64,000 bases of DNA from Bdellovibrionales bacterium (GTDB lineage Bacteria > Bdellovibrionota > Bdellovibrionia > Bdellovibrionales > UBA1609): the NCBI GenBank assembly GCA_016714165.1, contig JADJNU010000001.1:1411536-1475535 (forward strand), given 5' to 3'. The position numbers and the translations under genes were made by a program. A model generated the notes under the pieces. The model made no database searches. It saw only the letters and a program-made list of their open reading frames with translations, and was not told the DNA's origin. Positions 2,953 through 20,100 of the stretch are shown in pieces. Each line of letters opens with the position of its first letter. Position 1 is the stretch's first letter.

Positions 2953-3096
2953 TCAGCCTCCCTTTAGTACCTCTGCACATGCATATGTATAAATTTAGCC
3001 CACCGGACTGAAAACCGCAACAAGACGTGGCGTCTTTGGGCCTAAGACGGAGGACCAAGGTCGCACTGTCTAACAAATTGACAGTTCCAGGTCAAC

Positions 3097-5040
3097 CTAT
3101 TGGATGGCTCCCTCCCAAATGGATTGAGATATTACGAGTTCGCGGGATTCTAACACTCGGTAGATCAAAAAATTGCGCATAACGGCCTTCACATAAAAAC
3201 TTGTCTCAATCCAAGGCAGTTCATCAATCCAAAGGTCATCGAAAGGGTCTGCAGATCCACGCAAACTCAACTTGGCTAAGTCTTCCCGAAAAGCCATCCA
3301 CTTTCTGAGGCGACCAATTCCAAGATTGTAACTGCCCAAGGCGAGCAGCAAATGTCCATCAAAGGCTCTGATCATTCTTCTCAAATAACTTGTCCCAAAC
3401 ATAATGTTCAATTCAGGAGAGAAGAGATCTTCTGGAAGCGAAAGCTTCTTTTTGTAATTGGTGTATTGGGCCGAATCTCGCGCGGTAATGGGCACAATTT
3501 GCATAAGTCCCACTGCGTTTGCAGGGCTCACAGCATCAGGGCGAAAAGAACTCTCCTGTTTGATCAACCCAAGAATCAAGGCCGAATCGAGTCCTTGTTT
3601 GGCAGCCATTTTCTTTACCAAAGATTGAAACTCGCGAGGAAAAGAAAGACCATAGAGCCCAGATCTCAAGAGCCCACGATCTTCCTCCCAGGCCTCATTC
3701 ATCAAGGAAATGGCCCCGAAATGATCGAATGCCAAAGACATGAGCCTTGCTCTTACAACTTTTTCCTCTGGAGACTGCGGTGCAGGCAATAACCCAAGTT
3801 CTGCTTGGGCTTCCTTAAACCATCCCGCCTGCAACAGAACTTGAAATCTTTCCCAAGCCTGATATTCGACTTCGCTAAGCCAGAGCTGAATCTTGACTGG
3901 TCCCTTCGAATCAGGTTCAAAGCTCAGACGGTTTTCGTTTGTTTCAATTTTGGTTCTCAACCCATAATAAGTTAAAGGGAAACGATCGATCAAGATCTTG
4001 GCTTCCTGCGTAGCGCGTTCAGAATTGAATTTTTGAAGAGATCGGTACAGCCAATAGCGAGCCTGTAGCTCCCATTGCTTCCCCTTCGGAAGAGCCAACA
4101 ACCGCTCAAACGAGGCCACGCCAGCCGGGTATTTTTGCTGACGAAGGTGGGTGAGACCCAGTCTGAAAAGGGCTTCAGCTGCGATATCTGTTCCGCCATG
4201 CTCCTGGATCAGTTTCTCGAAACTTTGTTCTGCTTTTTTATAATTACCCAAAAAAAAGGACGACTGGGCCAAAACGTAAAGAGGCGTCGCGGTTGACTTC
4301 CCCTTCATTTCGGACAGACTGGAGTCAGCAAGACGAAGACTTTCAAGGTAATAACCACGGCCAAAAAGATTTTTGGCCCATTCAGCCTGACGCCCACCAT
4401 CCACTTTGTCTAATTGATCAAGAATTCTTTCTTTCAAAAGTCGAAGCTTAGTATCCGAATTGGAAATTACACTCGTCAGAACCTCAATGATTTTATCACT
4501 GGCCCAATCAGACCTTCGCCCTCCGGGAAATTTCTTGATCAATTTCACACAGTCCTCTACGGCAGCAAGAAAATCACCACCGCTCAAAGCAACCCCTATC
4601 CTCTGCTGAAGCTCTGTCTCCTCTTGAGAAACTTCAACAGTGAGATCAGAATTAGTTGCCGGCCCCTGTTGAGCAACCGTGACTTTGCTATCAGATTTGG
4701 ATAAGACTCCCCGAAGGGATTCAATCCGTTGACGCATTTCTGGTTGCGGCAGAGCACGGTAACTTCTTCCAAAATAGTCGGCCGCTGCACTCAGATTTTG
4801 TTGAATAAACGCCAAATCTCCTGCTGACCGATAAAGTTGCGCCTGAGCTGCTTGATCAAGCCAAGACTTTTTCTGCATGATACGATCAATTGTATTCCAT
4901 GCCTGACGTCGGTTGGATTTAAGTTGCTTACCCAGAAGGTGCAGAAGTGCTTTGACATAAGCTTGCCGAAGCTCATTCACCTGAGGGCCCTGTAAAAACC
5001 AATCAGAGTTTTTATCTATTTTATCGACAATGGAGCTCAA
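3097..5040 (-). CDS. slt: soluble lytic murein transglycosylase (Slt70-like), main fragment: superhelical N-domain + C-terminal SLT domain; lacks its own signal peptide; starts at TTG in ORF track
   Basis: C-terminal SLT motif ILGLIKQESSFRPDAVSPANAVGLMQIVP ... GSYNLG; alpha-helical TPR-like N-terminal region; frame is continuous with upstream ORF 5021-5386 if A8 tract were A7. Confidence 0.75.
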   Translation of the reverse strand: MSSIVDKIDKNSDWFLQGPQVNELRQAYVKALLHLLGKQLKSNRRQAWNTIDRIMQKKSWLDQAAQAQLYRSAGDLAFIQQNLSAAADYFGRSYRALPQPEMRQRIESLRGVLSKSDSKVTVAQQGPATNSDLTVEVSQEETELQQRIGVALSGGDFLAAVEDCVKLIKKFPGGRRSDWASDKIIEVLTSVISNSDTKLRLLKERILDQLDKVDGGRQAEWAKNLFGRGYYLESLRLADSSLSEMKGKSTATPLYVLAQSSFFLGNYKKAEQSFEKLIQEHGGTDIAAEALFRLGLTHLRQQKYPAGVASFERLLALPKGKQWELQARYWLYRSLQKFNSERATQEAKILIDRFPLTYYGLRTKIETNENRLSFEPDSKGPVKIQLWLSEVEYQAWERFQVLLQAGWFKEAQAELGLLPAPQSPEEKVVRARLMSLAFDHFGAISLMNEAWEEDRGLLRSGLYGLSFPREFQSLVKKMAAKQGLDSALILGLIKQESSFRPDAVSPANAVGLMQIVPITARDSAQYTNYKKKLSLPEDLFSPELNIMFGTSYLRRMIRAFDGHLLLALGSYNLGIGRLRKWMAFREDLAKLSLRGSADPFDDLWIDELPWIETSFYVKAVMRNFLIYRVLESRELVISQSIWEGAIQ

Positions 5041-5386
5041 GGAAACAAGATGACCTTGATTTTTTTTCAGACAACTTCATGGCACAATTCAACTCTGTGA
5101 TCGCCAACCAGGCTCGCAATCCCTGAGCAATCTTGTCGAGTTTGGCAGCTGTTCCCAAGCACCTCTCAGCATTATTTTTTTTATCTTCCTGTCTCAAGGT
5201 TATCAACAGACGAGCAACTGATGCTCCCCCCTTTGGAACTGGAGAATCATCGTAGTTCCACCTTGAGGCCGGTAAATCAAAGTCACTTGTCAGTATCACC
5301 TGGCGAAGATTTACTTGGGCCTCGCACAAAGCAACCGTGCAGACTGCAAAAAAGGCAAGCGTCCTACGGAAGGATTTTAACATCAA
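5021..5386 (-). CDS. N-terminal signal-peptide-bearing fragment (121 aa) probably belonging to slt, separated by -1 frameshift in A8 tract (plus-strand T8 at 5057-5064)
   Basis: Signal peptide MMLKSFRRTLAFFAVCTVALCEA; ORF overlaps slt ORF by 20 nt in different frame; manual translation shows removal of one A in A8 run joins the frames; start ATG overlaps batD-like stop (ATGA). Confidence 0.45.
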   Translation of the reverse strand: MMLKSFRRTLAFFAVCTVALCEAQVNLRQVILTSDFDLPASRWNYDDSPVPKGGASVARLLITLRQEDKKNNAERCLGTAAKLDKIAQGLRAWLAITELNCAMKLSEKKSRSSCFLELHCR

Positions 5387-7296
5387 GCCTTACCTTTGTC
5401 GGATGCTGTTTCCTGAAGAGAAACAAGAGCAAGATCAAGAGTGTGGCTCAGAAGTTTATCTAATTCACTCACTGTCTTTCTGAGCTCTTTTTTATCCCTC
5501 AGCGATCCGGTCAATGCCTCTGGAGCAAATCCCAAGGCCTCTAGAGTATTCATGATCTTGCGGAGAGGAGCTTCCACCTCTCGGCGGACGCTTGGAGGGG
5601 CTTTCATGACAAGCTTTTCCAGTTCCTGATATCCTCCCCGCGATCCTGAAATTTCTCCCAAGATCAGATAAATGAGGTTGGTTCCTTCGACGCCAACTGA
5701 GCGCCAATCTCCCTTGTCCGCAAGCTTAGTGATGCGAAGAATCCTCTTCTTGTAAAGAGCACGCAAATCTCTGCCCTTTCGCCAAATACCAAATTGCATC
5801 ATTGTCCAGAACCCCAGGGCAATGAATATCGCCAGATAAACAACAGGCCAAAATATCAGAGGCTGAAAAGGAAAGCCTCCGCCGCTCGCTTCCCATCCCA
5901 AAGCCAGTTCAGGCATTCCACTACGAGCTTCCTTCTCTTTTTCCTTCGCCTCTTCCTTTGATTCTCTTGGAGCCGAAGCAATGGTCTGATCGCCACTGCT
6001 CGGTGTTACGGTTAACAGAATCTCAGAAGTCCCCTTTTTGTAAAACTGCCCGGTATTGGGATCGAAAAGACTAAAGCTAAGAGCAGGTATGGTAACTGAT
6101 CCTGCCTCCCGCGGGATCAATAAGACTTCAAATTCTTTATAACTCTGTCCGTTTTTAAAAAATTTTGATTCACTCTTTGTATCGTAAACTTCAATTGAAG
6201 AGGGAAGACCCAGCTTTGGCAGATCAATCAGCTTCGCATTGCCGCGACCATCAAACCTAACCTTCAATGTTACGGGTTGGTTAGCAGCAACCGTCTGCTC
6301 TGAAATCCCTCCCGTCACTTCAAATTGCCCGACAGCGCCCGTGTAATCAGCCGGTCGGCCCTCTGAGGGTACGGGTAAGACTTGAATTTCCACAGGTTTG
6401 CTGGCCTTCGTGTAAACATATTGACGACCAAATCCAAAGGTGGAGTCTGCCATGACTGAGCATTTTGCTTTGTATGGATCTATAACCGCTTTTCCTTGCT
6501 TGATAGGAAATAGGGCATAAGACACAAGCAAAGCCTTCTTATAAACCAAGCCATTGATCACCTCATCTTGCCACTCGAGGCGGGTCGCCAGATCAATCTC
6601 TTCTTTCCAAAATCCATTGAGAGATGGATATTGAAGCGTGTCGATATCACGGATCAGGCTACGCGTGTAAAGATACCACGAGGCAGTCACTTGCTGTCCC
6701 TCATAGACCTTCTTATTATCCACATCGACTTGAATAAAAAATGCTTCATCTGGGTTAATCGGTTGCGACTTGAATCCCGGCATCCGCCTGCGCAGCAATT
6801 GAGAGAATAGCTCGTCGGCATCATCTAAGGGATCAACGGGCTGCCCCGGAGGCGTTTGAGCCTTTGGCCGAGTGGGAACAGAACCCGCCTTCTTCACATC
6901 AATATCCAGAGACTTGGTTCTGTAGGAATTTCCATTCACAACGACCTCAACAGGATCGATTCGTTGTTTTCCCGTCGAATTGGGGGCTAGCATATAATTG
7001 AAAATCCGAGACTGTTGAACCTGAAACTGTCCATTGGCGTACGTGCTACTTGTCTCCGATGATGACCAGGAATTAATAAGATCAAGATTTTTAAAACTTG
7101 GCAGTCGGGGCTCCTCAACCGTTACGCTTCCCTTGCTCGATACCGAAATCATCAGGGTGAATGTATCCCCTTCCTCCATTGACTCTCGATCCACGGAGGC
7201 TGTGACGCTGACTCCTTCAGACGCGACTGCCCGAGCAAAATTCAACCCCGCCACAGCGAAGACAAACAGCAACCAGAATTTACCAATCTTTGCCAT
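5383..7296 (-). CDS. BatD-like (oxygen-tolerance family) protein: signal peptide, large extracytoplasmic domain, single C-terminal TM helix and cytoplasmic tail
   Basis: N-terminal signal MAKIGKFWLLFVFAVAGLNFARA; C-terminal TM FPFQPLIFWPVVYLAIFIALGFWTMMQF; position as last gene of MoxR/vWA/TPR operon matches Bat operon order. Confidence 0.6.
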   Translation of the reverse strand: MAKIGKFWLLFVFAVAGLNFARAVASEGVSVTASVDRESMEEGDTFTLMISVSSKGSVTVEEPRLPSFKNLDLINSWSSSETSSTYANGQFQVQQSRIFNYMLAPNSTGKQRIDPVEVVVNGNSYRTKSLDIDVKKAGSVPTRPKAQTPPGQPVDPLDDADELFSQLLRRRMPGFKSQPINPDEAFFIQVDVDNKKVYEGQQVTASWYLYTRSLIRDIDTLQYPSLNGFWKEEIDLATRLEWQDEVINGLVYKKALLVSYALFPIKQGKAVIDPYKAKCSVMADSTFGFGRQYVYTKASKPVEIQVLPVPSEGRPADYTGAVGQFEVTGGISEQTVAANQPVTLKVRFDGRGNAKLIDLPKLGLPSSIEVYDTKSESKFFKNGQSYKEFEVLLIPREAGSVTIPALSFSLFDPNTGQFYKKGTSEILLTVTPSSGDQTIASAPRESKEEAKEKEKEARSGMPELALGWEASGGGFPFQPLIFWPVVYLAIFIALGFWTMMQFGIWRKGRDLRALYKKRILRITKLADKGDWRSVGVEGTNLIYLILGEISGSRGGYQELEKLVMKAPPSVRREVEAPLRKIMNTLEALGFAPEALTGSLRDKKELRKTVSELDKLLSHTLDLALVSLQETASDKGKA

Positions 7297-8023
7297 TCGG
7301 TGCCTCCTTTAATCCCTGTTCATTTTCTTCTGCACGAATTTTCTGCTCCTGATTTTTCAACTCTTCTAAAATAGCTTGAATTTGTTCCTTTGTTAAAGAC
7401 CCTCCGCCAAGTTTCTGTTTTGTGGGCTTAGAGTTCTGATACTCTTGGTCCTCGCTCTGATCTCGCTTGTCTTTGCCTTTGTCTTTGTCTTTGTCTTTGT
7501 CTTTGCCTTGTCCCTCGCCCTTTTCTTTTCCGTTTGGATCTTCTTTTTGATCCTTCCCTTCTCCCTTTCCCTTGCCTTGGCCTTCTCCTTGCCAGAGCAG
7601 CTCTATATTTGTTTTTACTTCGACAGAATCGGGGCGAAGCTCCAGGGCATTTTGGTAGTTCTGAAGAGCCGCCTCAATCTGACCCTCTTGGGCCAAGGCA
7701 ACGGCAGCATTAAAAAAACCGTAAAATTGCAATTCAGGATTCCTTTCAGCCAAACGAACCACCGTACCAAAAGCCTTCACTGCTTTTTCAGGTTCCTTAT
7801 TGAGTAAAAAAGCCAAGCCCAAATTGAGTTGAACGTACAAATTAAATGGATCCTCAGCAAGAGCCGCCACAAAACTCTTGTAAGCCGGATAGCTATTTTC
7901 CTGTTTAAGACTAGCGACCCCCTGATTGTTGAGCTCGATGGCCTTCACGCTTAAATTTCTGGCAATGACCGCCGTTGCCGCCAAACACAAACAAAGAATG
8001 AATCCAACAACTAGACCTCTCAT
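7280..8023 (-). CDS. TPR-repeat protein with K/D/E/G low-complexity segment (BatC-like)
   Basis: Signal/TM N-terminus; TPR-like helices (AIELNNQGVASLKQENSYPAYKSFVAALAEDPFN...); low-complexity GEGQGKGKGEGKD...KDKDKDKDKGKDK encoded by (CTTTGT)n microsatellite; start overlaps upstream vWA gene stop. Confidence 0.6.
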   Translation of the reverse strand: MRGLVVGFILCLCLAATAVIARNLSVKAIELNNQGVASLKQENSYPAYKSFVAALAEDPFNLYVQLNLGLAFLLNKEPEKAVKAFGTVVRLAERNPELQFYGFFNAAVALAQEGQIEAALQNYQNALELRPDSVEVKTNIELLWQGEGQGKGKGEGKDQKEDPNGKEKGEGQGKDKDKDKDKGKDKRDQSEDQEYQNSKPTKQKLGGGSLTKEQIQAILEELKNQEQKIRAEENEQGLKEAPNGKDW

Positions 8024-9090
8024 TGTTCAGCGACCTCGAATCGCCCTTTCCAAATCCGGCCCGAGCGACGGCGTTCGCTGATTGCCAATTCGATCAGCAA
8101 GAAAATTAATCCTGCGACAAGGAATCCCTGGTATTTCTCATCGTAATTTGTCACAATCGCAGAACCAAACTGCGACTTTTCAAGTTTCTGTATATCCTCA
8201 TACAAAGCCCGGGGGGCGTTTCCTCCAAATGTGGCGTGATAAAAACTTCCCTTCCCTTCGCGGGCCAGCTCCTTCAAGGGTGTTCCTTTCGTTTGTGTGA
8301 GTATCACCTTTCCACTTTGATCCTTGCGATATCCACGAAGATTTCCAAATTCATCTCGCAGAGGAATTGGACCCCCCTTTTCTGTTCCCACTCCCAAAGA
8401 AAATATTCGGATGCCTTCATCAGCCAATTCCTTTGCTACTTTCAGAGCTCCTGGCTCTTGATCCTCGCCATCCGAAACAATCAGAATAGCTCGAGTCACC
8501 GATGAATCCTCATCTGCTTCAATTCCCCCGCGACGAAAAGCATCCTTTGCTTCTCTAAGAGCCTTGGCAAACTCAGTGCCTTGAGTTGAGACCGATTTAG
8601 GAGAAAGAGATTCAACAAACATCTTTATCGCCGACAAATCGGTGCTCACGGGAGATAGCACCACCGCCGAGCTCGCAAAAGCTATCAATCCGACGCGATC
8701 TCCGGACATCAGATCGAGAAGACGTCCCACCTCTTTCTTAGCCAATTCTAAACGGCTTGGTTTCACGTCCTCAGATTCCATGCTGTTGGACACATCAAAA
8801 AGAATGACGATCTCAATGCCCTCGCTTTTTACTTTCTGTCGTGACTGCCCAGCTTGGGGACGCGCCAACGCAAAGATAAAACAACCAATGGCAGAGAGCT
8901 CTAAAACGAGTTTCCAGCGACGCCGCAGGGTCGATACACTCGAGGTGAGAAAAGGGGCCAGTTTTGAACCCAGAGCCTTGGCTATTTTTCTGGTCTGAGC
9001 TCGAGTTAAGTAAATAGAAAAAACAAAAAATACCGGCAAAAGCCAGAGCAGTTGCAGAGCTGCGGGGTCAGCAAAACGATATTCGCTCAT
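8020..9090 (-). CDS. von Willebrand factor A domain membrane protein (BatB-like)
   Basis: N-terminal TM helices; vWA MIDAS-like DVSNSM motif; translationally coupled to neighbours. Confidence 0.75.
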   Translation of the reverse strand: MSEYRFADPAALQLLWLLPVFFVFSIYLTRAQTRKIAKALGSKLAPFLTSSVSTLRRRWKLVLELSAIGCFIFALARPQAGQSRQKVKSEGIEIVILFDVSNSMESEDVKPSRLELAKKEVGRLLDLMSGDRVGLIAFASSAVVLSPVSTDLSAIKMFVESLSPKSVSTQGTEFAKALREAKDAFRRGGIEADEDSSVTRAILIVSDGEDQEPGALKVAKELADEGIRIFSLGVGTEKGGPIPLRDEFGNLRGYRKDQSGKVILTQTKGTPLKELAREGKGSFYHATFGGNAPRALYEDIQKLEKSQFGSAIVTNYDEKYQGFLVAGLIFLLIELAISERRRSGRIWKGRFEVAEQ

Positions 9091-10094
9091 CAGGGCCCCC
9101 TTCTCAAAACAGTTCTACCTAAAAAGGAAGAAACAATGAGCAGCACCAAGCCCGCCTCTAAGTAGGGTGGATACAATTCTGAATATCTTGTGAACTCATT
9201 GACCTCAACTTTGGTTTTTTCCAATCGATCAATATCCTTAAATACATTCTCGAGAGCCTGACCATCAATAGCTCGATAATATTTTCCGCCAGTCTCCGAA
9301 GCCATTCGACCCAGGAGTTCATCATTAACGGCACTGTGTATGGGACGATAGCGTTTAACCTTTCCTCCCCTGCCATCATCAAGGTACACAGGCAACTGGG
9401 CCTGTCCGTCCCGACCCATCCCAATGCTGTAGGTCTTAATACCCAAGTCCCGGGCCAATTCAATTGCTGTCTGAGGATCAATTGTTCCGCTGTTATTTTC
9501 TCCATCTGTTAAAAATATAACAACTCGAGATTTTGCCGTGGAGTCCTTCAATCGGCCTACCGCATTGGCCAAGCCCACCCCGATGGCAGTTCCCATCTTG
9601 ATGTTGCGCGAAGTCTGGACCTGCGCCAGATTATTCATGAGGAGAGGGTAGTCGAGTGTCATGGGCACCCGAGTGTAGGATTCCCCAGAAAACACAATCA
9701 GCCCAATGCGATCTGAAATCCGCCCTTTGATAAAATCATGGATCACTTTCTTCGAGGACTCCAAACGATTTTCCGGCTGCATGTCCTCTATCAGCATACT
9801 ATCTGAAATATCTAGAACGATCATGATATCAATGCTCTCAACATTTCTCTTCATTTTTGTGTCACTCCTTTGAGGACGCGCCAATGCGACAACCACAAAG
9901 AGAAGACCAAACAGTTTCAGAACAGATGGAATGCCGACGAGCCGAGCCCGAAGTGTACCTCCAGCAGCCTTAAGAATTTTGATCGAGCTGAATTGGACTG
10001 ACGGCCTCTGCCTCTTGCGCATGAACCATCTCCAAATAAAAATCAAAATTAGCGGAGCAAGAAAGCCAAAGGCCCAAGGAGATGCCCACGTCAC
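9090..10094 (-). CDS. von Willebrand factor A domain membrane protein (BatA-like)
   Basis: Two N-terminal TM helices; vWA motif LDISDSM ... FLTDGENN; stop/start overlap with flanking genes. Confidence 0.75.
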   Translation of the reverse strand: MTWASPWAFGFLAPLILIFIWRWFMRKRQRPSVQFSSIKILKAAGGTLRARLVGIPSVLKLFGLLFVVVALARPQRSDTKMKRNVESIDIMIVLDISDSMLIEDMQPENRLESSKKVIHDFIKGRISDRIGLIVFSGESYTRVPMTLDYPLLMNNLAQVQTSRNIKMGTAIGVGLANAVGRLKDSTAKSRVVIFLTDGENNSGTIDPQTAIELARDLGIKTYSIGMGRDGQAQLPVYLDDGRGGKVKRYRPIHSAVNDELLGRMASETGGKYYRAIDGQALENVFKDIDRLEKTKVEVNEFTRYSELYPPYLEAGLVLLIVSSFLGRTVLRRGP

Positions 10095-11008
10095 TTCGAA
10101 CCCCTTCCCGCCAATTGGTGCTCGATTCGGTCCGCCACCTGTCGAGTCATTTCCATCAATTGTTCCGCATCCACTCGCGAGACGGTGGTCGCCGATTTCG
10201 TCTTTCTCAATTCATTGAAGAGTCGACGCAAATCAGAGGCTGTTGTTTTATAAACCTGCTTGTAACGATACTTAATTTCGTTCATCACCGCCCGATCGCC
10301 CCACTCAAGAGCCGGCACCAGAAGTCGTCTCACCAGATAGAGTCGAAAAAGCTGATCCAAATCATACACAAAACTGTTTAAACTATCCGCTTGGTCCGGG
10401 CGCAGTTTTCGCAGCAGACCCCGTATCCCTTTATTCATTTCATTGAATGGAGAAAGAGCCGTCTTGTTGGTGGCTAGCTTTTCAAGCAAGCGTTTACGGG
10501 AGTAATATCGACGGCTCTGCCGCCAAATGAAGCCAAGAACAATTAAACCAAGCAGTACCCATACACCGTACAACCAAGGCGGATAGCCCATTTGAAAGGG
10601 TCCAAAAGGTGGCACCATCTGAGCCTGTGTTTTTCCTTCTAAAACAGATTTCACTTGCCACTCAATTTTGCTCATTTTCACTGTGTTTGTGCCATCAGAG
10701 AGAACAAGATCATCTCCCACATAATTTCCAGGTTTATATCCTGTTACCACCATTTGAATTTGATCGGGAGACTGAGTGACTACTTTCAAAGGGTAGAGGG
10801 AGTATTGCTGCTCTTGTTTACTAAATCGAATACTCGGTTGAGCTTTCCATTCGCCGACGGGCTCCCCACGACACGTGAGCAGGTACTTGCTTCCAACTGT
10901 AAAGGAGTCTAGCTTTGCCGCCCCCGCTTGAGAGGCCTCTTCAAGATTGCAATTCCAGATCGGAGCGTTTGCACTGTCAGAAGCCAAACTTTCCGGATTT
11001 GAATTCAC
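10091..11008 (-). CDS. hypothetical single-pass membrane protein of the MoxR/vWA operon
   Basis: ORF translationally coupled on both sides (4-nt overlaps); central TM helix LYGVWVLLGLIVLGFIW; no recognisable catalytic motif. Confidence 0.5.
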   Translation of the reverse strand: MNSNPESLASDSANAPIWNCNLEEASQAGAAKLDSFTVGSKYLLTCRGEPVGEWKAQPSIRFSKQEQQYSLYPLKVVTQSPDQIQMVVTGYKPGNYVGDDLVLSDGTNTVKMSKIEWQVKSVLEGKTQAQMVPPFGPFQMGYPPWLYGVWVLLGLIVLGFIWRQSRRYYSRKRLLEKLATNKTALSPFNEMNKGIRGLLRKLRPDQADSLNSFVYDLDQLFRLYLVRRLLVPALEWGDRAVMNEIKYRYKQVYKTTASDLRRLFNELRKTKSATTVSRVDAEQLMEMTRQVADRIEHQLAGRGSK

Positions 11009-11880
11009 CGTCGACTCCTTCTTTTGAAGAAGGCGATCAAGGGTTCGACAATATCCTCACCCGCTTTTAAATCAATCCGATCCACCTGGGCCCTCTTCAA
11101 AGCCAATTCCCGACTGCTTGTCTTTTCTTTTGAGGACTCCAAAAAAGCTTTCCGAAACGCAGGAGATGAGGTGTCCACGGTATAGATCTCACCAGATTCT
11201 GCGTCATGAAAATCAATGATTCCCATAGCTGGGATCTCCCTCTCAGCCGGATCCTGCACCACGGCTGCAACCGTGTCATGCTTGCGCCCCAACATTCGCA
11301 GAGGACCATCAAATCCTTCATCCATAAAATCGCTAAAGATAAAAATATGCGACTTCTTTTTTAGGACCCCTTGTAAAAACTCGAGAGCCACTTTGAGTCC
11401 TGTCCCCTGAGATTTGGGTTTAAAATAATACAAATCACTCATGATGCGATGAATGTGTCCCCGTCCTTTTTTAGGCGGAACATAGTGCTCCACCTGATCG
11501 CTAAACAAAAGCAAACCCACTGGGTCCTTGTTTTTGGCGGCAGAAAAACTGAGCAAGGCCGCCAAATGCGTCACGATTTCGCCCTTGAAATACTCCTTTG
11601 ATCCAAAATTAACAGAACCGCTCACATCAACTGCCAACATGACTGTCATCTCACGCTCTTCATCAAATTTCTTGATAAAGGGCTTTCCCGCCCGCGCGGT
11701 GACGGGCCAGGAGATCGCGCGAACATCATCGCCCGGGACGTATTCGCGAAATTCTGAAAAAGTCATCCCCTGCCCACGAAAAGCAGAATGATATTCTCCG
11801 GCGAACAGATTATTCACGAGACGCCGTGTGCTCAGTTCAAGCAACTTCACTTTTTTAAGTATCTCTGGAGGTAAACTCAA
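11005..11880 (-). CDS. DUF58 family protein (vWA-like MoxR partner)
   Basis: Typical DUF58 N-terminus LSTRRLVNNLFAGEYHSAFRGQGMTFSEFREYVPGDDVRAISWP and MIDAS-like VDVSGS; immediately downstream of MoxR ATPase. Confidence 0.8.
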   Translation of the reverse strand: MSLPPEILKKVKLLELSTRRLVNNLFAGEYHSAFRGQGMTFSEFREYVPGDDVRAISWPVTARAGKPFIKKFDEEREMTVMLAVDVSGSVNFGSKEYFKGEIVTHLAALLSFSAAKNKDPVGLLLFSDQVEHYVPPKKGRGHIHRIMSDLYYFKPKSQGTGLKVALEFLQGVLKKKSHIFIFSDFMDEGFDGPLRMLGRKHDTVAAVVQDPAEREIPAMGIIDFHDAESGEIYTVDTSSPAFRKAFLESSKEKTSSRELALKRAQVDRIDLKAGEDIVEPLIAFFKRRSRR

Positions 11881-11881
11881 A

Positions 11882-12871
11882 CTAGGGCACCTCGATATGA
11901 CTGAGCAGCTCCTTAATGATCTCTTCGGAACCGACTTCTTCGGCCTCAGCTTCGTAGGTTAAAATCAGTCGGTGGCGCAAAACATTGTAAGCAACGGCCT
12001 TAATGTCTTCAACTGTCACAAAGCCACGCCCCCTCAGAAACGCATGGGCTCTGCCGGCACGAGCCAAATTGATTGTCGCTCGCGGAGAAGCGCCTACCGC
12101 CAATAAGCTCTGAATGTGACCCAAACCATAATCGCTCGGGCTGCGAGTTGCCATGACCAATTCCACAATATAATTTTTCAATTTTTCGTCGACGTAAATG
12201 GAGTCAATTCTCTCTTTGGCTCTCATCAATTCTTCTCTTCCGATTACCGACTCAATCTGTGGTGAATGATCTGTCGACATTCTATCCAGAATCAAGGCCT
12301 CTTCTTCTTTTTTTGGATAGGTCACAATTACTTTGAACATAAATCGATCGAGTTGGGCTTCGGGCAGCGGATAAGTTCCTTCTTGTTCCAATGGATTTTG
12401 AGTTGCCAGAACCAGAAAAGGTCGCGCCAAAGGGTAGGTTTCGTCTCCAATCGTCACCTGCTTCTCAGCCATGGCTTCAAGCAGGGCACTCTGAACTTTC
12501 GCTGGAGCCCGATTGATTTCATCGGCCAAAACGATATTGGTAAAAATAGGTCCCTTTTTCGGCATAAACTCATTGGTCTTCATATTGAAAATCATCGTTC
12601 CAATGAGATCTGTAGGCAAAAGGTCGGGGGTGAATTGTATTCTTTGAAATTGCAAGGAAGTGGCTCGACCGATCGAGGAAATAACCAAGGTTTTTGCCAA
12701 GCCTGGCACACCCTCCAGCAAAACATGGCCTCCAGTTAAAAGACCCATAATTATGCTCTCGACCATTTCTCTCTGACCGACAATGATCTTGCCTACCTCG
12801 ACGATAACTTTCTCGACAAATTTGCTTTCTTGTTTGATCGCTTCGTTTAGCGCCAGTATGTCCACTTGCAC
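11882..12871 (-). CDS. MoxR-family AAA+ ATPase
   Basis: Walker A GVPGLAKT, Walker [11 protein letters not shown], typical MoxR length 329 aa. Confidence 0.9.
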
Positions 12872-13129
12872 GGCGTGTCTCCTCTCCGCTGACCGACCAA
12901 AAATGTATCCCGTCCACGAAAAAGCGAAATATTCTCATGGCATGGGGCTCCCATTCTCACAGGATGATCACGGAGTGACAAGAAATTCTTGAAGTTTCTC
13001 ATTGGGCGAACAGGATTTTCGCTATACACTTGCCATGAAGCAAATCAGTTGCCAGTTCGATTCTACTTGGCAATATTAGAACAATCCACGCAAGACGAGG
13101 AGCCAGAATGGGACCTCACTTCCTGAGAG

Positions 13130-14005
13130 ATGTGGGCAGACCTTAGAGGCGGGAAAATAGAAATGAATGGATCGACCAAAACATGGTTTTTGCTCTCAGT
13201 GGTTTCGATATCTGTGATCTCAGCCTTTCATTCCTGGGCTGGCAGGCAAGGCCTGCTGTGGGGCGTTATCATCTCGCTCAGCGTAAATTGCCTGATCTAC
13301 TTCTACAATGAGGTCCACCTTGGAAATGTCTTTCTGGGACAGTTGATCGAAGGTCAGAACCCTTGGGGTCTTTTAGACACTGTTCAAAAACTCGCAAAGA
13401 CGGCCAGAATTCCCGTTCCAAAAGTGGTGGTGCTTGCCTCTCTTTCCCCTCAAGCCGTGGTGATGGGGCGAAGCTGGAATTCCGCTACTCTCTATTTGAC
13501 TGAGGGCCTCCTCCGAACTCTCTCGGCTGATGAGAGAGAGGCGGTAATTGCCTACCAGATTTCTTGTATTAAAAAAATGGATACTCTTATCTTTACTTTT
13601 GCTTCTGCGATAGTAGGCGTGATTTTCACCTGCTCAAGAATAATCGATTTTTTGCTCCGTGGAATAATGGGGGCCAAAGCCGATCCAAATTCTCGACAGA
13701 ATCACCTTTGCAGTTGGCTCTTCGCGCCCATAGCCACTGCAATTGTGAAAATTTCAATCGGTTCGAGTCGGTATCTCACCAATGATGCCATAGCAGCTTC
13801 CTGGCTCAAAGATCCAAAGGCCCTCGCCCAAGCTCTCTGGAAACTGGATTCTTATGCCTCTACAATGCCCTTGGCCGTTCCCCCCTCTACGGCGCCTCTC
13901 TTTGTGGTCAACCCCTTGACTGGACGTGGTTGGACTCGTTACTTTCATGTCCATCCAAGCGTTGAAAAACGAATTAGAAATATCATCGGATACTATCCAA
14001 TTTAG
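13130..14005 (+). CDS. HtpX (peptidase M48)-like membrane protein with degenerate active site (predicted inactive pseudoprotease)
   Basis: Aligns by eye to E. coli HtpX: ...SADEREAVIAYQISCIKKMD vs ...[20 protein letters not shown] (HExxH replaced by YQxxC); third ligand region RYLTND vs REFHAD; C-terminal HVHPSVEKRIRNI vs THPPLDKRIEAL; N-terminal TM helices; alternative start at 13163. Confidence 0.65.
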   Translation: MWADLRGGKIEMNGSTKTWFLLSVVSISVISAFHSWAGRQGLLWGVIISLSVNCLIYFYNEVHLGNVFLGQLIEGQNPWGLLDTVQKLAKTARIPVPKVVVLASLSPQAVVMGRSWNSATLYLTEGLLRTLSADEREAVIAYQISCIKKMDTLIFTFASAIVGVIFTCSRIIDFLLRGIMGAKADPNSRQNHLCSWLFAPIATAIVKISIGSSRYLTNDAIAASWLKDPKALAQALWKLDSYASTMPLAVPPSTAPLFVVNPLTGRGWTRYFHVHPSVEKRIRNIIGYYPI

Positions 14006-14346: not shown

Positions 14347-14507
14347 AGAAAATTATCACAGTGTTCCCATCTTGACGACAACGAATGTCGGCATCAAACT
14401 GCCGGTACGTGTGAAGGAAATCCATCGATATGGTGGTCTGGCGTAGCGGTTGCTTTCGCGAGGGTTTCATTGCGTGTTTGAGAAACGACCATTGGGAGGT
14501 AGTTAGT

Positions 14508-15980
14508 ATGCGTAGGACAAAGCAGAGATGGCTGATCATGGGAGCAATTTTTTTTGGCTTGTCATTGGCAGGGCTGATGGTCGGGTACTTGCCGACAGGA
14601 AATGCACAGCTTCCTAAATCACCGATTAGAGCCGGAGACCCCTTACCCGCCAATCTATTTATTGAACTCAATAAAGTGATCAATCCAACTGTCGTTAACA
14701 TTTCTACCAGTCAAACTCCCCGTCAGACGGGAAGAAGAATGCCAGGATACCCAGATCCTTTTTTTGATCTCTTCCAGCAATTCATGGGCCCCGGCCCCTT
14801 TTATCAAGAACAACAGCCGCGCCAGTCCCTGGGAACAGGATTTGTCATTCGCGAAGACGGCTTGATCCTTACCAATAACCACGTCGTCGACAAAGCTGAT
14901 GTCATCAAAGTCCAGCTCAACGAAAATGATAAGGAAACATACGATGCAAAAGTGATTGGAAAAGATGCCAGTACTGATGTTGCCTTGATCAAAATTGAAG
15001 CTAAAAAGAAACTTCCGGCTGCAAAATTAGGTTCAAGTGCAGATCTTCAGGTGGGTGAGTGGGTTGCCGCTTTTGGAAATCCTTTTGGACATGGGCACAC
15101 AATCACCAAAGGCATTATCTCAGCCTTGGGACGAGAGATTGATGAGCTCAATCGATTTCCCTTTTTGCAGACAGACGCCAGCATCAATCCGGGTAATTCT
15201 GGTGGACCTCTGGTGAATTCCCTTGGGTTCGTGGTTGGAGTTAATACAGCTATAGACGCGCGTGCACAAGGGATAGGTTTTGCTATTCCAATTGACGATG
15301 TAAAATCCATTGTCTCCGTTCTTGAAAAAGATGGAAGTATCAAACGCGGCTTTCTTGGCGTCCTTATGCAAGATCTGGATAAGGAGTCAGCGAATTCTAT
15401 CGGAATTGATCGGACCGACGGAGCTCTGTTGACTCAAATTATCCCCGAAAGCCCCGCACAAAAGGGAGGCCTTAAGCCTTACGACTTAGTCATTCAGATA
15501 AATGGAAAGAAAGTATCCAGTACACGCGATTTAAGTCGGAGCGTTTTGGGACTCAAGGCGGGAGACAAAGTCGAAGTGACTGTGGTTCGCGATAAGAAGG
15601 AAAAAAAGCTCCAAGTGACGATCGGCAAACATCCTGACGAGACAGATGAGGATCAGTTGGGCCAATCGATGAAGCGCTACAACGGTCAGAAGGCGCCCTT
15701 TGATTTGGGATTTAGAGTTGGTGATTACTCGAGGGAACTCGCCGCCGAACTTGGACTCCCCCTGCTCAGCGAACCTCGTCCCATCATTCTCGATGTGGAA
15801 AGAAACTCACTGGCCGCTGTATCGGGCTTGGCACCCGGGGACATCATCCTTGACGTGAATCGTCAGGAAGTGATCAAGGCTCGCGATGTACTGAAGACGC
15901 TCCGAAAAGACGGCATCAACGTCTTGCGGGTGCTGAAACAAAACCGAGTGGTATTGATTTATTTGAAGTCTCAGAAGTAA
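14508..15980 (+). CDS. htrA: HtrA/DegP/DegQ-family periplasmic serine endoprotease (trypsin domain + 2 PDZ)
   Basis: Catalytic triad context HVV...D...GNSGGPL; two PDZ-like regions; signal/TM MRRTKQRWLIMGAIFFGLSLAGL; start chosen at ATG 14508 after GGGAGG RBS rather than ORF-track 14430. Confidence 0.9.
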   Translation: MRRTKQRWLIMGAIFFGLSLAGLMVGYLPTGNAQLPKSPIRAGDPLPANLFIELNKVINPTVVNISTSQTPRQTGRRMPGYPDPFFDLFQQFMGPGPFYQEQQPRQSLGTGFVIREDGLILTNNHVVDKADVIKVQLNENDKETYDAKVIGKDASTDVALIKIEAKKKLPAAKLGSSADLQVGEWVAAFGNPFGHGHTITKGIISALGREIDELNRFPFLQTDASINPGNSGGPLVNSLGFVVGVNTAIDARAQGIGFAIPIDDVKSIVSVLEKDGSIKRGFLGVLMQDLDKESANSIGIDRTDGALLTQIIPESPAQKGGLKPYDLVIQINGKKVSSTRDLSRSVLGLKAGDKVEVTVVRDKKEKKLQVTIGKHPDETDEDQLGQSMKRYNGQKAPFDLGFRVGDYSRELAAELGLPLLSEPRPIILDVERNSLAAVSGLAPGDIILDVNRQEVIKARDVLKTLRKDGINVLRVLKQNRVVLIYLKSQK

Positions 15981-16303: not shown

Positions 16304-16609
16304 ATGATGAAAATCACCGATGTTAAGGTATTCCCCGTTAACGAAGAACGCCTCAAAGCCTACGTCACTATCACCATCGACGATTGTTTTGTTGTTCGAG
16401 ACCTGAAAGTCATCAAGGGAAATGATGGCCTCTTTGTAGCCATGCCCAGCAAGCGGCGCAAAGACGGACAATTTAAAGACATTGCCCATCCACTCAATCA
16501 GGAAACCAGAAACGAAATCGAGAAGGCCATTTTTGATGAATTCGAGAGAGAAATTCGATCACTGGGCAGCAGCCTCGATGATTTGAACCAAGAAGACCAC
16601 GAAGAATAG
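16304..16609 (+). CDS. spoVG: SpoVG family protein
   Basis: MMKITDVKVFPVNEERLKAYVTITIDDCFVVRDLKVIKGNDGLFVAMPSKRRKDGQFKDIAHPLN matches SpoVG family consensus. Confidence 0.85.
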   Translation: MMKITDVKVFPVNEERLKAYVTITIDDCFVVRDLKVIKGNDGLFVAMPSKRRKDGQFKDIAHPLNQETRNEIEKAIFDEFEREIRSLGSSLDDLNQEDHEE

Positions 16610-16778: not shown

Positions 16779-16806
16779 AACCGCTTAACAGGCGGTTTTT
16801 TATTTT
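16779..16806 (+). terminator. rho-independent terminator after tRNA-Gln (AACCGC-loop-GCGGTT + T-run)
   Basis: aaccgcttaacaggcggttttttatttt. Confidence 0.6.
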
Positions 16807-16908: not shown

Positions 16909-18240
16909 TCGGTTCATGGTGGGTAATTCAAAAAAGTCATTTAAGCACAAGCATTTAGGTATCTGAGTCTATACAATTTAAAACTTTTAACGCCGTAAGC
17001 CCTCTTCTGGATTAGCTTTGCGACGTTGTTAAAGCCTTCTGTTCTGGCATTGGTAATGCGGTTGACGAAGTAATTCAAGATTTCATTTCTCCATTTCATG
17101 AGGGTGCGCCTGAGGGTTTTTATTTCGGGGATTTGGCTTAAAGCCATTTGATCTGTAATTCGAATTAACACTTTGGCAGCTGTTCTGTTTCCTTTGATTC
17201 GGTAAAATCCATGGAGGGCTTCTTTGTAATGATAAATTTCTTTTAGCTGGGGATGAAGATTGAGCCATTCATAAAGGGCTCTTCGTTCATAGGACTCAAG
17301 CTTTTACCATTTCTAAGTAGGAGTTTTCGAAGGGGACTGGTTCTTTTGTCGCCAGTGACTTGTTTTCGGTAGCGATTAAGAGCTGGATTTAAAAGCCTGA
17401 GCACATGGAACTTATCAGCAATCATCTGGGAGTTAGGAAAAAACTCTCGAACAAAGCTTTTATAGCTATCTGACAAATCTAGAACGACGTTTTTTACATT
17501 TTCTCTACCAGGGATATGTTTAAGTTGTTCAATGAGTTGCCCCTTTTACTTTTCCATGAGCGAGTTCACGAACACGCTTATTGTTGTAATCAACGAGTAC
17601 GGTTGCAAACTCTCTAAACCCATTGGCTCGAGAGAAAAGTGTTCATCTATGCCAATGGTTTTTGGCCACGGATAATTGATATGCCTCTTGAGGTTCGTCT
17701 CTAACCTCTCATAAAGAGTCTGATAGACCGTCCACGTTGAACATGCATAGGCCCTTCTGACCTTACTGAGATCCGTAAAGTTCTCACAGGCCCAAAGAAC
17801 ACCTCGTTTAAACCTCTCGGTGGTTCTTTTTCCTTTTCTGATTCCTTGAACTGGTTCGGTGAAAGGCTTTCGGCAGGTCTTACAATAGAATCTGCGTTTT
17901 AAAACATGGAGCCAGACTTGATTGCCGTGGATGGGAGCATCGTGTGCTTTGGCCCACCTTCGATCATAAACAGTCTTAGAAGGTGTCGCACACTTTGGAC
18001 AGATTTCAAAGCTGGATACTTTTTCAACCTGTTTGTGCTTTCGGCCAGATCGATCTCTCCCAAATTTTAAAAGTTTTAATTCTGGTAATAATAGAAATTG
18101 TGATATTTTTTCGTGCTGAGGCATAAGTTCTTTTCCTTTCAAAGGTTTGAGTTGTCAGGCACCCAAATCTTAGCTTGAAAAAGTCTTAGGCCTCTTCTTT
18201 TTTGACTTACCGCATCCCACCTCCAACCGTGGAGAACCAA
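16901..18240 (-). mobile_element. ISL3-family insertion sequence remnant (~1.34 kb) with imperfect terminal inverted repeats
   Basis: Left end ggttctactcggttcatggtgggtaattcaaaaaag vs reverse complement of right end ggttctccacggttggaggtgggatgcggtaagtcaaaaaag; transposase fragments inside; no clear target-site duplication found. Confidence 0.65.
16941..18142 (-). pseudogene. ISL3-family transposase disrupted into three ORFs (198+77+76 aa) by frameshifts
   Basis: N-fragment has zinc-finger CPKC...CKTC and IGIDE (first D of DDE); middle fragment IADKFHV; C-fragment TEGFNNVAKLIQKRAYGVKSFKLYRLRYL matches ISL3 C-terminal signature. Confidence 0.75.
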
Positions 18241-18471: not shown

Positions 18472-20100
18472 CTACGGTTCCATACCCCTACACTCCAATT
18501 GCAGACCTAAATTTTCAGCCAAGAATGGCAAGACACTCTTATCCCGTAAACTTTCAGAGCACAGATAGTTGCGAGCCTTATCCCTTCCCACATTAGACTG
18601 ACCATCTTTTACTATAAAACCAAGAGCGGCGACGAAACTTCCCAAACGTGAGTCTTTGGGAGCAAGCGCCTTATAAACGTCCCAACCAACGACAAGACTC
18701 CACACCCCTAGAATGTTTGCATTTGCGATAAGCCAATCGGTGCTATTTCCGACTGACCACATCAAACACTCAGGAATTTTCTTACGCCAAAATTTTCCAT
18801 CGTAAGTGGGTTCAATATCTAAGTCTCCGCAAAACGGTTTCGTAGGCACATTTGGACTTCCCAAATAGAGCGATTGAAAGTTCTCTCTATCCATCTCGCC
18901 AAGATGAACAAACTTCGACGTGAGATTAAATGGCGGATAACCCATTACTGTTCCCAGAGAGGGATCACTCAGCCAAGCTCCAGCGAAGTTGTGATTCCAG
19001 CCTAAAAAATGTCCCATCTCATGAAGCAAAAGCCACATAACCAAACCTTCTGGATCTGGCCTCAAGATTTGTGAATACTTGCCAATCCGTGAGAAACCCA
19101 ACGCTGTCTGTATAAGAGTCGAAGGATTTTCTACTAACGCAAGCTCGCTGGCCGTCCCCAATCGGCGCGCGACTTGGCTTGAATCGTTGTAGAGATAAAT
19201 AATTCCTCCCATGACTCTGCCTGTTCTCGGATCAGCCGTCACAGTGGATGTTCCATGTTCACCCGTCCATGTGAATTCTTCGCCGCCATGCCACTGGATA
19301 CACAAAATGTTTTCCGTTAGGCAATCCGTGACATTTAGGTCCTGTTTCCCACCAAAGAAATAGTAGTTATGTCCAAAAAGTTGATTCCATTCACCAAGGG
19401 CTCTTTTCAAAACGTCGATAAATCGATTCGGAAAATTTGGATTTACAAGCACTCTCCGTGAACCAGTGCGAACGGGATGATTAAAGAAATAACGTGGTCC
19501 TGGAAACGGCCGAGTATCAATTCCGAAGAGAGCCTGGATCGACAAATCGCCAATCATTCTCTCATTGTTTGGGGTGAAACTAAGGCCCGGAAATATTTTT
19601 GATCCCACAAGGTATTTGGTCTCTATTTCCTCAATCTTGGTCGGCATCAGAACAAGAACGAATTGTCTTTCAGAAAAATTCAAAATAATTTTGTCTTCGC
19701 CGGAACGTGAAAGAGTGAATGCGTCAGCTCCAGATCTCACCCCCCAGACGAAAGGTTCCAAAGTAGGAGACTCAGAGAGGTTTACCGCACTGAACGTCCA
19801 CTCGATAACGCCGCCCCGTTTCGGATCTGAGGGATTTTTAAAAATGGCTCTTTGATTGAGCGGCAATTCTTCCGAAAGTACCAGATCACCGTTTACTGAT
19901 TCTACTTTCCAACTCTTGACCACAAGACCTGATGCCTCGCTGCCAGATGCATCGTAGGCAACTGACGTAATGTTTTTCCATTTTGCTAGGGAGGCTTTAA
20001 CTTCCGAGGGCCACGTCCGAACTTCCGCCCAAGACCCTCGGCAACAAATCGACATAAAAATGAGTGTCAAAATTTGGCAAAAACGCATATCGCTGATCAC
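18472..20100 (-). CDS. secreted zinc metalloprotease, metzincin-like (HEMGHFLGWNH = HExxHxxGxxH)
   Basis: Signal-like N-terminus; extended zinc-binding motif LLLHEMGHFLGWNHNF; possible start at 20088 (MRFCQILTLIF...). Confidence 0.6.
   Translation of the reverse strand: MISDMRFCQILTLIFMSICCRGSWAEVRTWPSEVKASLAKWKNITSVAYDASGSEASGLVVKSWKVESVNGDLVLSEELPLNQRAIFKNPSDPKRGGVIEWTFSAVNLSESPTLEPFVWGVRSGADAFTLSRSGEDKIILNFSERQFVLVLMPTKIEEIETKYLVGSKIFPGLSFTPNNERMIGDLSIQALFGIDTRPFPGPRYFFNHPVRTGSRRVLVNPNFPNRFIDVLKRALGEWNQLFGHNYYFFGGKQDLNVTDCLTENILCIQWHGGEEFTWTGEHGTSTVTADPRTGRVMGGIIYLYNDSSQVARRLGTASELALVENPSTLIQTALGFSRIGKYSQILRPDPEGLVMWLLLHEMGHFLGWNHNFAGAWLSDPSLGTVMGYPPFNLTSKFVHLGEMDRENFQSLYLGSPNVPTKPFCGDLDIEPTYDGKFWRKKIPECLMWSVGNSTDWLIANANILGVWSLVVGWDVYKALAPKDSRLGSFVAALGFIVKDGQSNVGRDKARNYLCSESLRDKSVLPFLAENLGLQLECRGMEP

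Follow-up and report, generated by a model that had tools for sequence, protein, structure and literature searches.

A probable catalytically inactive HtpX ortholog in a conserved DUF1844-HtrA neighborhood of the Bdellovibrionota

Within a 64,000-nucleotide (nt) stretch of the genome of a Bdellovibrionales bacterium (assembly GCA_016714165.1, contig JADJNU010000001.1, positions 1,411,536 to 1,475,535; the whole stretch is called here the window), a gene on the plus strand codes for a membrane protein of the HtpX/M48 metalloprotease family, named here pHtpX, whose zinc-binding and catalytic residues have all been replaced. An initial annotation, made from the sequence alone, had predicted a pseudoprotease whose scaffold is conserved while its chemistry is lost, and the alignments, a large clade of degenerate relatives and the purifying selection acting on the gene all agree with that prediction. 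It is highly probable that pHtpX is a catalytically inactive HtpX ortholog kept under selection, and we lean slightly towards a combined reading in which such a dead, selected HtpX plays a non-catalytic role in envelope quality control.

The longest reading of the gene in the whole window is an open reading frame (ORF) that occupies exactly positions 13130-14005 of the plus strand and codes for 291 amino acids (aa). The true start is very probably Met12 of this ORF, at nt 13163, because the homologs are 280 aa long and begin with MNGSTK or MSGSTK, and the gene would then encode a 280-aa protein. From Met12 on, the window protein is identical to MBK7843307.1, which NCBI lists as an active "M48 family metalloprotease". 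Upstream of the start used by the homologs and by NCBI, the longest ORF has 11 more residues (MWADLRGGKIE, 13130-13162). The Joint Genome Institute version of the cluster member P0197 is also 291 aa long; start-codon annotation differs among sources.

The homology to HtpX proposed for the full length of the protein, including its C-terminal HPxxEKRI signature, was borne out by Pfam, NCBIfam, PDB and MAFFT alignments, which all agree. The Pfam Peptidase_M48 model (PF01435) matched residues 83-285 above its gathering threshold (50.4 bits versus 20.3, E = 3e-13), and eight NCBIfam HtpX equivalog models (including NF002826, NF002363, NF002839, NF003425 and NF003965) aligned over nearly the whole protein; the best of them, NF002826, paired residues 14-284 with profile positions 3-274 of 285 at 160.5 bits. 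All of the HtpX equivalog scores are far under the curated cutoffs, which for NF002826 is set at 369 bits. This cutoff is a strict one, and the canonical relative P0021 (329 bits) and P0105, an intact protein encoded at the same locus as pHtpX in another genome (234 bits), also fall below it.

The register of the lost site was the same in all of these comparisons. When the protein was aligned by HMMER with PDB sequences, AVIAYQISCIKKMD paired with AVLAHEVSHIANGD of the Vibrio HtpX domain 3cqb, and a MAFFT alignment with E. coli HtpX and canonical relatives gave an identical register. Residues of the site (Y142, Q143, C146, Y215, D219, H275 and R281) are numbered along the 291-aa ORF, and Ec denotes residues of E. 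coli HtpX, whose roles we take to be those given in the HtpX literature and in UniProt P23894. In this alignment Ec H139 is replaced by Y142 (nt 13553-13555), Ec E140 by Q143, Ec H143 by C146 (nt 13565-13567) and the third zinc ligand, Ec E222, by Y215 (nt 13772-13774), so that the reported substitution of every zinc and catalytic residue holds at the aligned columns. The third-ligand region had been read as RYLTND in place of EFHAD; the ligand is indeed lost, but that register was off by one, and the equivalent of the Glu is Tyr rather than Arg because R-E-F-H-A-D of E. coli aligns with R-Y-L-T-N-D. Asp219 (Ec D226) is kept and is invariant in the clade and in canonical HtpX alike, R281 (Ec R282) is also invariant, a salt bridge between the two being possible, and the equivalent of Ec P277 is kept; the window protein retains Ec H276 as H275, whereas 80 of 146 clade members have Gln at this position. 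A profile alignment could have placed an intact motif at some other position, but the degenerate motif sits exactly at the HExxH position, and a direct reading of the whole sequence revealed neither HExxH nor HxxEH elsewhere in the protein. Thus, HExxH is absent in three independent alignments and the third-ligand Glu is absent as well, and canonical zinc coordination, as judged from the aligned residues, does not appear possible in the window protein.

The predicted structure is in agreement with these alignments. An AlphaFold2 model built from a 17-sequence clade alignment reached a mean predicted local distance difference test (pLDDT) score of 88.6 and a predicted template modeling score of 0.86. 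Its long helices at residues 3-46, 140-169 and 178-199 coincide with hydropathy peaks, of which there are four (7-27, 29-49, 136-171 and 181-201), as in the 2 + 2 arrangement of HtpX, in which a pair of hydrophobic helices at the N terminus is separated by a soluble domain from a second such pair, with a helical domain at the C terminus. The orientation in the membrane would be that of E. coli HtpX, by homology. The scaffold is predicted to be that of M48, and the similarity to HtpX to be genuine, because every PDB entry matched by Foldseek at E<=1e-3 is an M48 protein, namely Ste24p (4il3), ZMPSTE24 (4aw6, 2ypt and 6bh8) or the HtpX domain 3cqb; below the significance threshold come BepA (6ait), also of M48, and the related sensor protease BlaR1. 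These M48-only significant matches, together with the consistent full-length profile alignments, dispose of the concern that the resemblance might be spurious.

Loss of the site extends well beyond the window protein. A word-indexed search retrieved 22 relatives, and when 1.84 billion cluster representatives were searched exhaustively with a profile, 18,141 matches below 1e-3 and 787 below 1e-30 were obtained. The best 150 matches of the profile search were aligned with E. coli HtpX, and the residues at the catalytic columns were read off. About 130 of these 150, which are sequence clusters at 50% identity with intact full-length ORFs, belong to a degenerate clade, and canonical HExxH...SRxREYxAD sequences appeared only at the bottom of the best-150 list. 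In a neighbor-joining tree, calculated without support values, the canonical sequences fell outside a group of 146 members (134 without near-duplicates). The HExxH columns of the clade read YQISC, YQLAS, FELAR, LELAK, YELxR, HEVAR, HELAK, HQLCH, QQLxx and others. At least one catalytic residue has been lost in 129 of the 134 de-replicated members; none is kept in 56, one in 49, two in 23, three in 1 and four in 5 (Asp as third ligand). The initial annotation had asked whether the YQxxC state is conserved across a clade; loss of the site is indeed clade-wide, but YQxxC itself is restricted to relatives of at least 62% identity.

The relaxation reaches the surroundings of the site, where residues that are fixed in canonical HtpX vary in the clade: N105 of PNAFATG is replaced by Thr, Gln and others, and T275 and H276 of THPP are likewise relaxed. 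In contrast to the site, structural residues (Ec P94, D226, P277 and R282) are fixed in the clade, lineage-specific motifs (GRQGL, LEGxDPW, LWKL and a C-terminal GYYP[ILV]) are kept, and, in the numbering of the 280-aa protein, G64, D208 and R270 are invariant and R28, G30, D/N66, P86, E124, D162, W226, K227, P251, P265, G276 and P279 nearly so. What has been conserved thus appears, from the clade alignment, to be the scaffold and the lineage motifs and not an alternative chemistry.

This distinction bears on whether pHtpX could still be a hydrolase with a non-canonical site made of Tyr142, Gln143, Cys146, Tyr215 and His275, possibly binding a different metal. Tyr, Cys and His are all potential metal ligands, the YQISC sequence and the Tyr are strictly kept in the closest relatives (62-98% identity), and the helper His in HPxxEKRI is still present in the window protein. 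The close relatives, however, are as conserved here as their overall identity predicts, and across the clade the four catalytic columns are highly variable, with entropies of 2.55, 2.25, 3.21 and 2.55 bits and 12, 10, 16 and 14 kinds of residue, against a clade-wide column mean of 2.47 bits and 0 bits at all four columns in canonical HtpX. No alternative set of conserved His, Cys, Asp or Glu residues was found in the clade alignment, and therefore no common chemistry would be under selection. Such an enzyme is, in our opinion, most improbable.

All of the named protein entries of the clade belong to the Bdellovibrionota. A reference-genome scan located 20 loci, all of them in metagenome-assembled genomes (MAGs) labeled as Bdellovibrionales, Pseudobdellovibrionaceae, Bdellovibrionaceae, Bdellovibrio sp., Bdellovibrionia, Bdellovibrionota or Oligoflexia. 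The genome scan, made with one peptide pattern, the homologue search and the cluster look-ups found carriers in MAGs and metagenome contigs only, with no cultured one among them. Judging by these sequences, the degenerate HtpX represents a Bdellovibrionota-wide clade rather than a single odd protein.

The selection acting on the gene was estimated by comparison with L029, a related locus whose pHtpX is 98% identical to that of the window. The two genes differ by 36 synonymous and 7 nonsynonymous codon differences, and the ratio of nonsynonymous to synonymous substitution rates (dN/dS) was 0.066 (NG86), 0.099 (LWL85) or 0.058 (YN00), as compared with 0.022 for moxR and 0 for the DUF1844 gene. 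In more distant pairs (34-68% identity) dS was saturated, with dN values of 0.24-0.74. The median identity to the window protein was 37% for pHtpX, 53% for HtrA, 55% for DUF1844 and 74% for MoxR. These values point to a constraint that is relaxed but real, as in a pseudoenzyme and unlike a pseudogene. In agreement with this, pHtpX combines clear homology to an enzyme family with the loss of the essential residues and with purifying selection. The alternative of a decaying relic, i.e. a pseudogene in progress, or of a spurious similarity to HtpX might be argued from the fact that pHtpX evolves faster than its neighbors and from its scores far under the HtpX equivalog cutoffs. Nevertheless, full-length ORFs are intact in about 130 clusters at 50% identity, dN/dS is 0.06-0.10, invariant residues and lineage motifs persist, and the confident AlphaFold2 model, its M48-only significant structural matches and the profile alignments are consistent with each other, so that this alternative is effectively refuted by the profile, fold, clade and dN/dS evidence.

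How the site was lost can be followed at the locus itself. P0087, which is fully canonical (HEISH...RRRREFEAD), and P0028, with HEISH and an Asp in the third-ligand column, are encoded in the same arrangement as the window protein, with a divergent MoxR gene and the order M48-DUF1844-HtrA, and P0105 has HEISH with the Glu retained. All three already have the lineage motifs GRQGL, LEGxDP[WYF]G, LWK[LIM] and IGxYP. Behind P0021 and P0105, the NF002826 scores continue with 201 bits for P0087 (in-locus, intact), 200 bits for P0028 (in-locus, HExxH with Asp), 160 bits for the degenerate window protein and 151 bits for P0017, also degenerate. The locus would therefore once have held an active, already lineage-specialized HtpX, because these rare in-locus orthologs still carry HExxH together with Glu or Asp, and most of its descendants appear to have lost catalysis and kept the rest. 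Members that keep H139 with E140, or H139 with H143, have still lost the third-ligand Glu, mostly in favor of Tyr or Phe, which suggests that the third ligand was lost first and that the HExxH helix then decayed in differing ways.

The residues that took over the emptied positions do not seem to be random. Tyr and Phe are preferred at the first-His and third-ligand columns across the clade. Among 129 non-redundant degenerate members, the second His has become Arg or Lys in 40 of the 49 that keep the catalytic Glu and in 13 of the 80 that have lost it (odds ratio 23, Fisher p = 1.3e-13), and the state occurs in about 25 separate runs when the members are ordered by the tree. With Gln and Cys at these positions (nt 13556-13567), the window protein is one of those that have lost the Glu. 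These patterns would fit a structural back-filling of the empty metal pocket, in which a cationic side chain neutralizes the buried Glu.

The neighborhood of the gene (Table 1) is as described by the initial annotation, with a MoxR/von Willebrand factor A (vWA) operon of Bat type divergent upstream and the genes for DUF1844 and HtrA downstream, and it proved to be nearly constant among relatives. MoxR is divergent upstream of pHtpX in 30 of 30 loci (the window and 29 related loci with a clade member), DUF1844 lies directly downstream in all 29 loci whose flank is available, and HtrA is next after DUF1844 in 28 of 29. The only break in the order pHtpX-DUF1844-HtrA is in L013. In this locus, from a Bdellovibrio sp. 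MAG, DUF1844 is followed by an ORF of 275 aa that is unrelated to HtrA and has a hydrophobic segment near its N terminus (11148-11975, plus strand), after which the contig ends. The synteny holds down to 25% identity and in a divergent ExxR subclade, and SpoVG follows HtrA also in L001, L003, L029 and L031. The nearest canonical HtpX sequences, P0019 and P0251, are found in unrelated contexts, and P0251, considered as a possible clade carrier, was rejected as a canonical HtpX in such a context. In the window, the first strong terminator-like hairpin of the plus strand (16779-16797) comes after spoVG, with none earlier in the unit, and the spacer between moxR and pHtpX contains a weak sigma-70-like match (13049-13077, plus strand) from a scan whose counts are not above the shuffled expectation. 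The start of HtrA is probably Met27 of an ORF that opens at 14430.

Table 1. Positions of pHtpX, its degenerate motifs and the neighboring genes, counted from the first nucleotide of the window
Feature	Position	Strand	Remark
pHtpX, catalytically degenerate HtpX/M48 ortholog	13163..14005	+	280 aa from Met12; homology, AlphaFold2, dN/dS
Degenerate HExxH, Y-Q-I-S-C (Y142, Q143, C146)	13553..13567	+	aligns with Ec H139-E140-x-x-H143
Third-ligand region, Y-L-T-N-D	13772..13786	+	Tyr215 in place of Ec E222; alignment
C-terminal HPSVEKR motif (H275...R281)	13952..13972	+	alignment
DUF1844 protein, 91 aa	14071..14346	+	directly downstream of pHtpX
HtrA/DegP-family serine protease	14508..15980	+	two PDZ domains, intact GNSGG
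SpoVG homolog	16304..16609	+	last gene ahead of the first strong hairpin of terminator type on the plus strand
Divergent intergenic region moxR/pHtpX, 291 bp	12872..13162		
Divergent Bat-type operon	5383..12871	-	MoxR through BatD
MoxR AAA+	11882-12871	-	
DUF58	11005-11880	-	
Hypothetical protein	10091-11008	-	
BatA-like vWA	9090-10094	-	
BatB-like vWA	8020-9090	-	
TPR protein	7280-8023	-	
BatD	5383-7296	-	

The DUF1844 protein was modeled as a three-helix bundle (pLDDT 76) lacking a signal peptide, and a fold search with this model returned generic helical-bundle matches only, none of them at E<=1e-3. A homolog search for DUF1844 recovered close Bdellovibrionales relatives only and is silent on HtpX-DUF1844 pairing outside the phylum. 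Published work links DUF1844 to D-Tyr-tRNA deacylase in Deinococcus-Thermus, and therefore the pairing with HtpX is not universal.

Because pseudoenzymes often regulate active cousins, as stated in a review of inactive metallopeptidases (PMC11266112), the dead HtpX might pair with or regulate an active M48/HtpX paralog encoded elsewhere in the genome, through mixed oligomers or as a competitive substrate sink, and the conservation of the scaffold and of the structural residues would suit such a role. No second M48 gene, however, was found in the 64-kb window or within +/-10 kb of the related loci scanned, and the intact orthologs at the same locus indicate that the dead form has taken the place of an active HtpX native to the locus and is not a duplicate beside it. 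For these reasons we regard a paralog regulator as unlikely.

The divergent arrangement raises a further question, i.e. whether the function of pHtpX is tied to the MoxR-vWA (Bat) system, for example as a membrane anchor or assembly factor for BatA/BatB. The two sides share an intergenic region of about 290 bp, and the MoxR gene is divergent at every one of the 30 loci. On the other hand, pHtpX, DUF1844 and HtrA lie close together on one strand without a plus-strand terminator ahead of spoVG, and in an exploratory mirror-tree analysis the divergence of pHtpX tracked that of HtrA (r = 0.84; partial 0.69 given MoxR) over that of MoxR (r = 0.65), the value for DUF1844 being r = 0.53 (partial 0.24). 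Moreover, E. coli HtpX has a functional link with DegP, whereas no known link between HtpX and Bat was found. A Bat/MoxR link is possible and less supported than that with the co-directional HtrA, and we judge a function of this kind decidedly unlikely.

Several features of the Bat side were also observed. The gene between DUF58 and BatA (10091-11008) has no Pfam match, its ortholog in L031 (5993-6919) has a weak DUF4381 match, and it is the fastest-evolving member of the operon (median 31% identity), yet it is present in every locus. Two SLT-domain lytic transglycosylases on the minus strand, within 1444-5040, adjoin the operon; three LysM domains are present in the first (1444-2952) and TPR repeats in the second (3097-5040). 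A TPR + SLT gene flanks BatD in L001 (1-2114) as well, and the conserved block may extend past the Bat genes.

As for the role that we favor for pHtpX, the inactive HtpX ortholog in envelope quality control, E. coli provides a precedent, where htpX and degP are envelope-stress genes that are co-regulated by Cpx and functionally linked. This co-regulation, and the cytoplasmic location of the HtpX active site, were reportedly described by Shimohata and co-workers in 2002. The ancestral HtpX would have worked with the periplasmic HtrA and the small cytoplasmic DUF1844 protein in the quality control of envelope and membrane proteins and, after zinc binding was lost, the non-proteolytic half of its job would have been retained. 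pHtpX could then recognize or hold misfolded segments of membrane proteins, or scaffold or regulate its partners, and substrates might be handed to active proteases, namely HtrA in the periplasm and FtsH at the cytoplasmic face. Aromatic residues (Tyr/Phe) would fill the former zinc pocket, and where the Glu persists an Arg or Lys may replace the metal cation. The specific assignment as an adaptor or holdase acting with HtrA is put forward as a tentative suggestion.

Some observations weigh against this proposal. pHtpX evolves faster than its operon partners, which would fit a less demanding role. The promoter and terminator scan counts do not exceed the shuffled expectation and are weak support for an operon, and the synteny, taken by itself, may owe something to an overall stability of the core genome in the phylum. 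Both the Glu-Arg/Lys and the mirror-tree statistics are uncorrected for phylogeny, and the neighbor-joining tree has no support values. The soluble domains are predicted to be cytoplasmic and HtrA is periplasmic, so that direct contact would be limited to short periplasmic loops, on which the conserved R28/G30 and D162 would lie by homology. Finally, the clade retains only part of PNAFATG, the canonical edge strand for substrate binding, and binding of substrates by pHtpX is therefore not assured.

A bolder version, in which an active HtpX was converted early in the Bdellovibrionota into a metal-free scaffold that physically couples cytoplasmic DUF1844 to periplasmic HtrA, as a bacterial counterpart of Derlins and iRhoms derived from a metalloprotease, appears doubtful to us. 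If true, such a scaffold would sense damaged membrane proteins or hand them over across the inner membrane, and it could be tuned to envelope remodeling in the predatory life cycle.

Other genes of the window are worth recording. An ISL3-family transposase on the minus strand (16941-18142), just past the terminator-like hairpin, is broken into three ORF fragments (16941-17171, 17243-17476 and 17546-18142) with Zn_ribbon_ISL3 and HTH_Tnp_ISL3 matches. It looks like a recent and already decayed insertion, because the 98%-identical L029 has a DUF2283 gene after spoVG at this position instead. Further along the minus strand, a 542-aa ORF (18472-20100) has a zincin-like 'LLLHEMGHFLGWNHNF' motif and no Pfam match at E<=1e-5, and it may represent an uncharacterized family of secreted metalloproteases. 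An 856-aa protein (23983-26553, minus strand) is an unusual three-domain fusion of a phosphoribosyltransferase, a dienelactone-hydrolase/alpha-beta hydrolase and an erythromycin-esterase-like domain (PF05139, E = 4e-104), and a 249-aa protein (27428-28177, plus strand) shows BIM1-like copper-acquisition and LPMO_10 domain matches.

Pseudoenzymes are common, and what we infer here is the function of pHtpX. MEROPS routinely flags non-peptidase homologs, and individual sequences may be so labeled there. A search of the accessible literature yielded nothing relevant on inactive HtpX homologs, on HtpX in Bdellovibrio or on the function of DUF1844, and M48, HtpX and Ste24 are not mentioned in the 2024 review of inactive metallopeptidase homologs (PMC11266112). 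As far as could be found, pHtpX is the first pseudoprotease described for the HtpX/M48B scaffold, phylum-wide, locked in an operon-like arrangement and with its intermediates visible. Public annotations such as "M48 family metalloprotease" or "heat shock protein HtpX" would lead to over-counting the proteolytic capacity of a whole phylum, and bacterial membrane pseudoproteases are barely documented. The stages of decay seen at one orthologous locus, from intact HExxH + Glu through HExxH + Asp, HExx[RK] and HQxxH to fully scrambled sites, make a useful system for studying the route from enzyme to pseudoenzyme and the non-catalytic half of HtpX, of which little is understood even in E. coli. For DUF1844, the invariant pairing would also offer a first functional handle.

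Among known systems, the closest in sequence is HtpX itself, from E. coli and other bacteria (MEROPS M48B; NF002826/PRK03001), which shares with pHtpX a length of about 280-290 aa, the same order of helices and soluble domains, an end-to-end alignment, the predicted M48 fold and the equivalents of Ec P94, E132, D226, P277 and R282; the genetic association with HtrA/DegP seen here also echoes the Cpx co-regulation of htpX and degP in E. coli. Unlike canonical HtpX, pHtpX has HExxH and the third Glu replaced, PNAFATG and THPP relaxed and a score of 160 bits against a cutoff of 369; it also carries GRQGL, LEGxDPW, LWKL and GYYP[ILV], which canonical HtpX lacks, and lies in a fixed operon with DUF1844.

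In terms of function, the rhomboid-superfamily pseudoproteases, iRhoms and Derlins, are membrane protease scaffolds that act in quality control without catalysis (PMC3149277, PMC6451368), and Bacillus subtilis YqgP has a catalysis-independent role as an adaptor towards FtsH (PMC7231995). iRhoms, Derlins and YqgP, which bind clients and pass them to a processive protease, may be the closest analogy for the role proposed here. In contrast, the rhomboid type is a serine intramembrane protease of other fold and chemistry, whereas pHtpX derives from a zinc metalloprotease with a cytoplasm-facing site. Within M48, the periplasmic BepA of E. coli, with M48 and TPR domains, combines proteolysis with a chaperone-like, non-proteolytic function in envelope biogenesis. 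It resembles pHtpX as a member of the family and in the weak structural match 6ait, but BepA is soluble, periplasmic and catalytically intact, whereas pHtpX is polytopic, of HtpX type and devoid of the site. Finally, the M12, M14 and other pseudopeptidases presented in PMC11266112 are likewise metallopeptidase homologs whose zinc ligands have been exchanged and which work through protein-protein interactions; the examples of that review are largely eukaryotic, whereas pHtpX is bacterial, membrane-embedded and phylum-wide, with the intermediates of its decay still visible.

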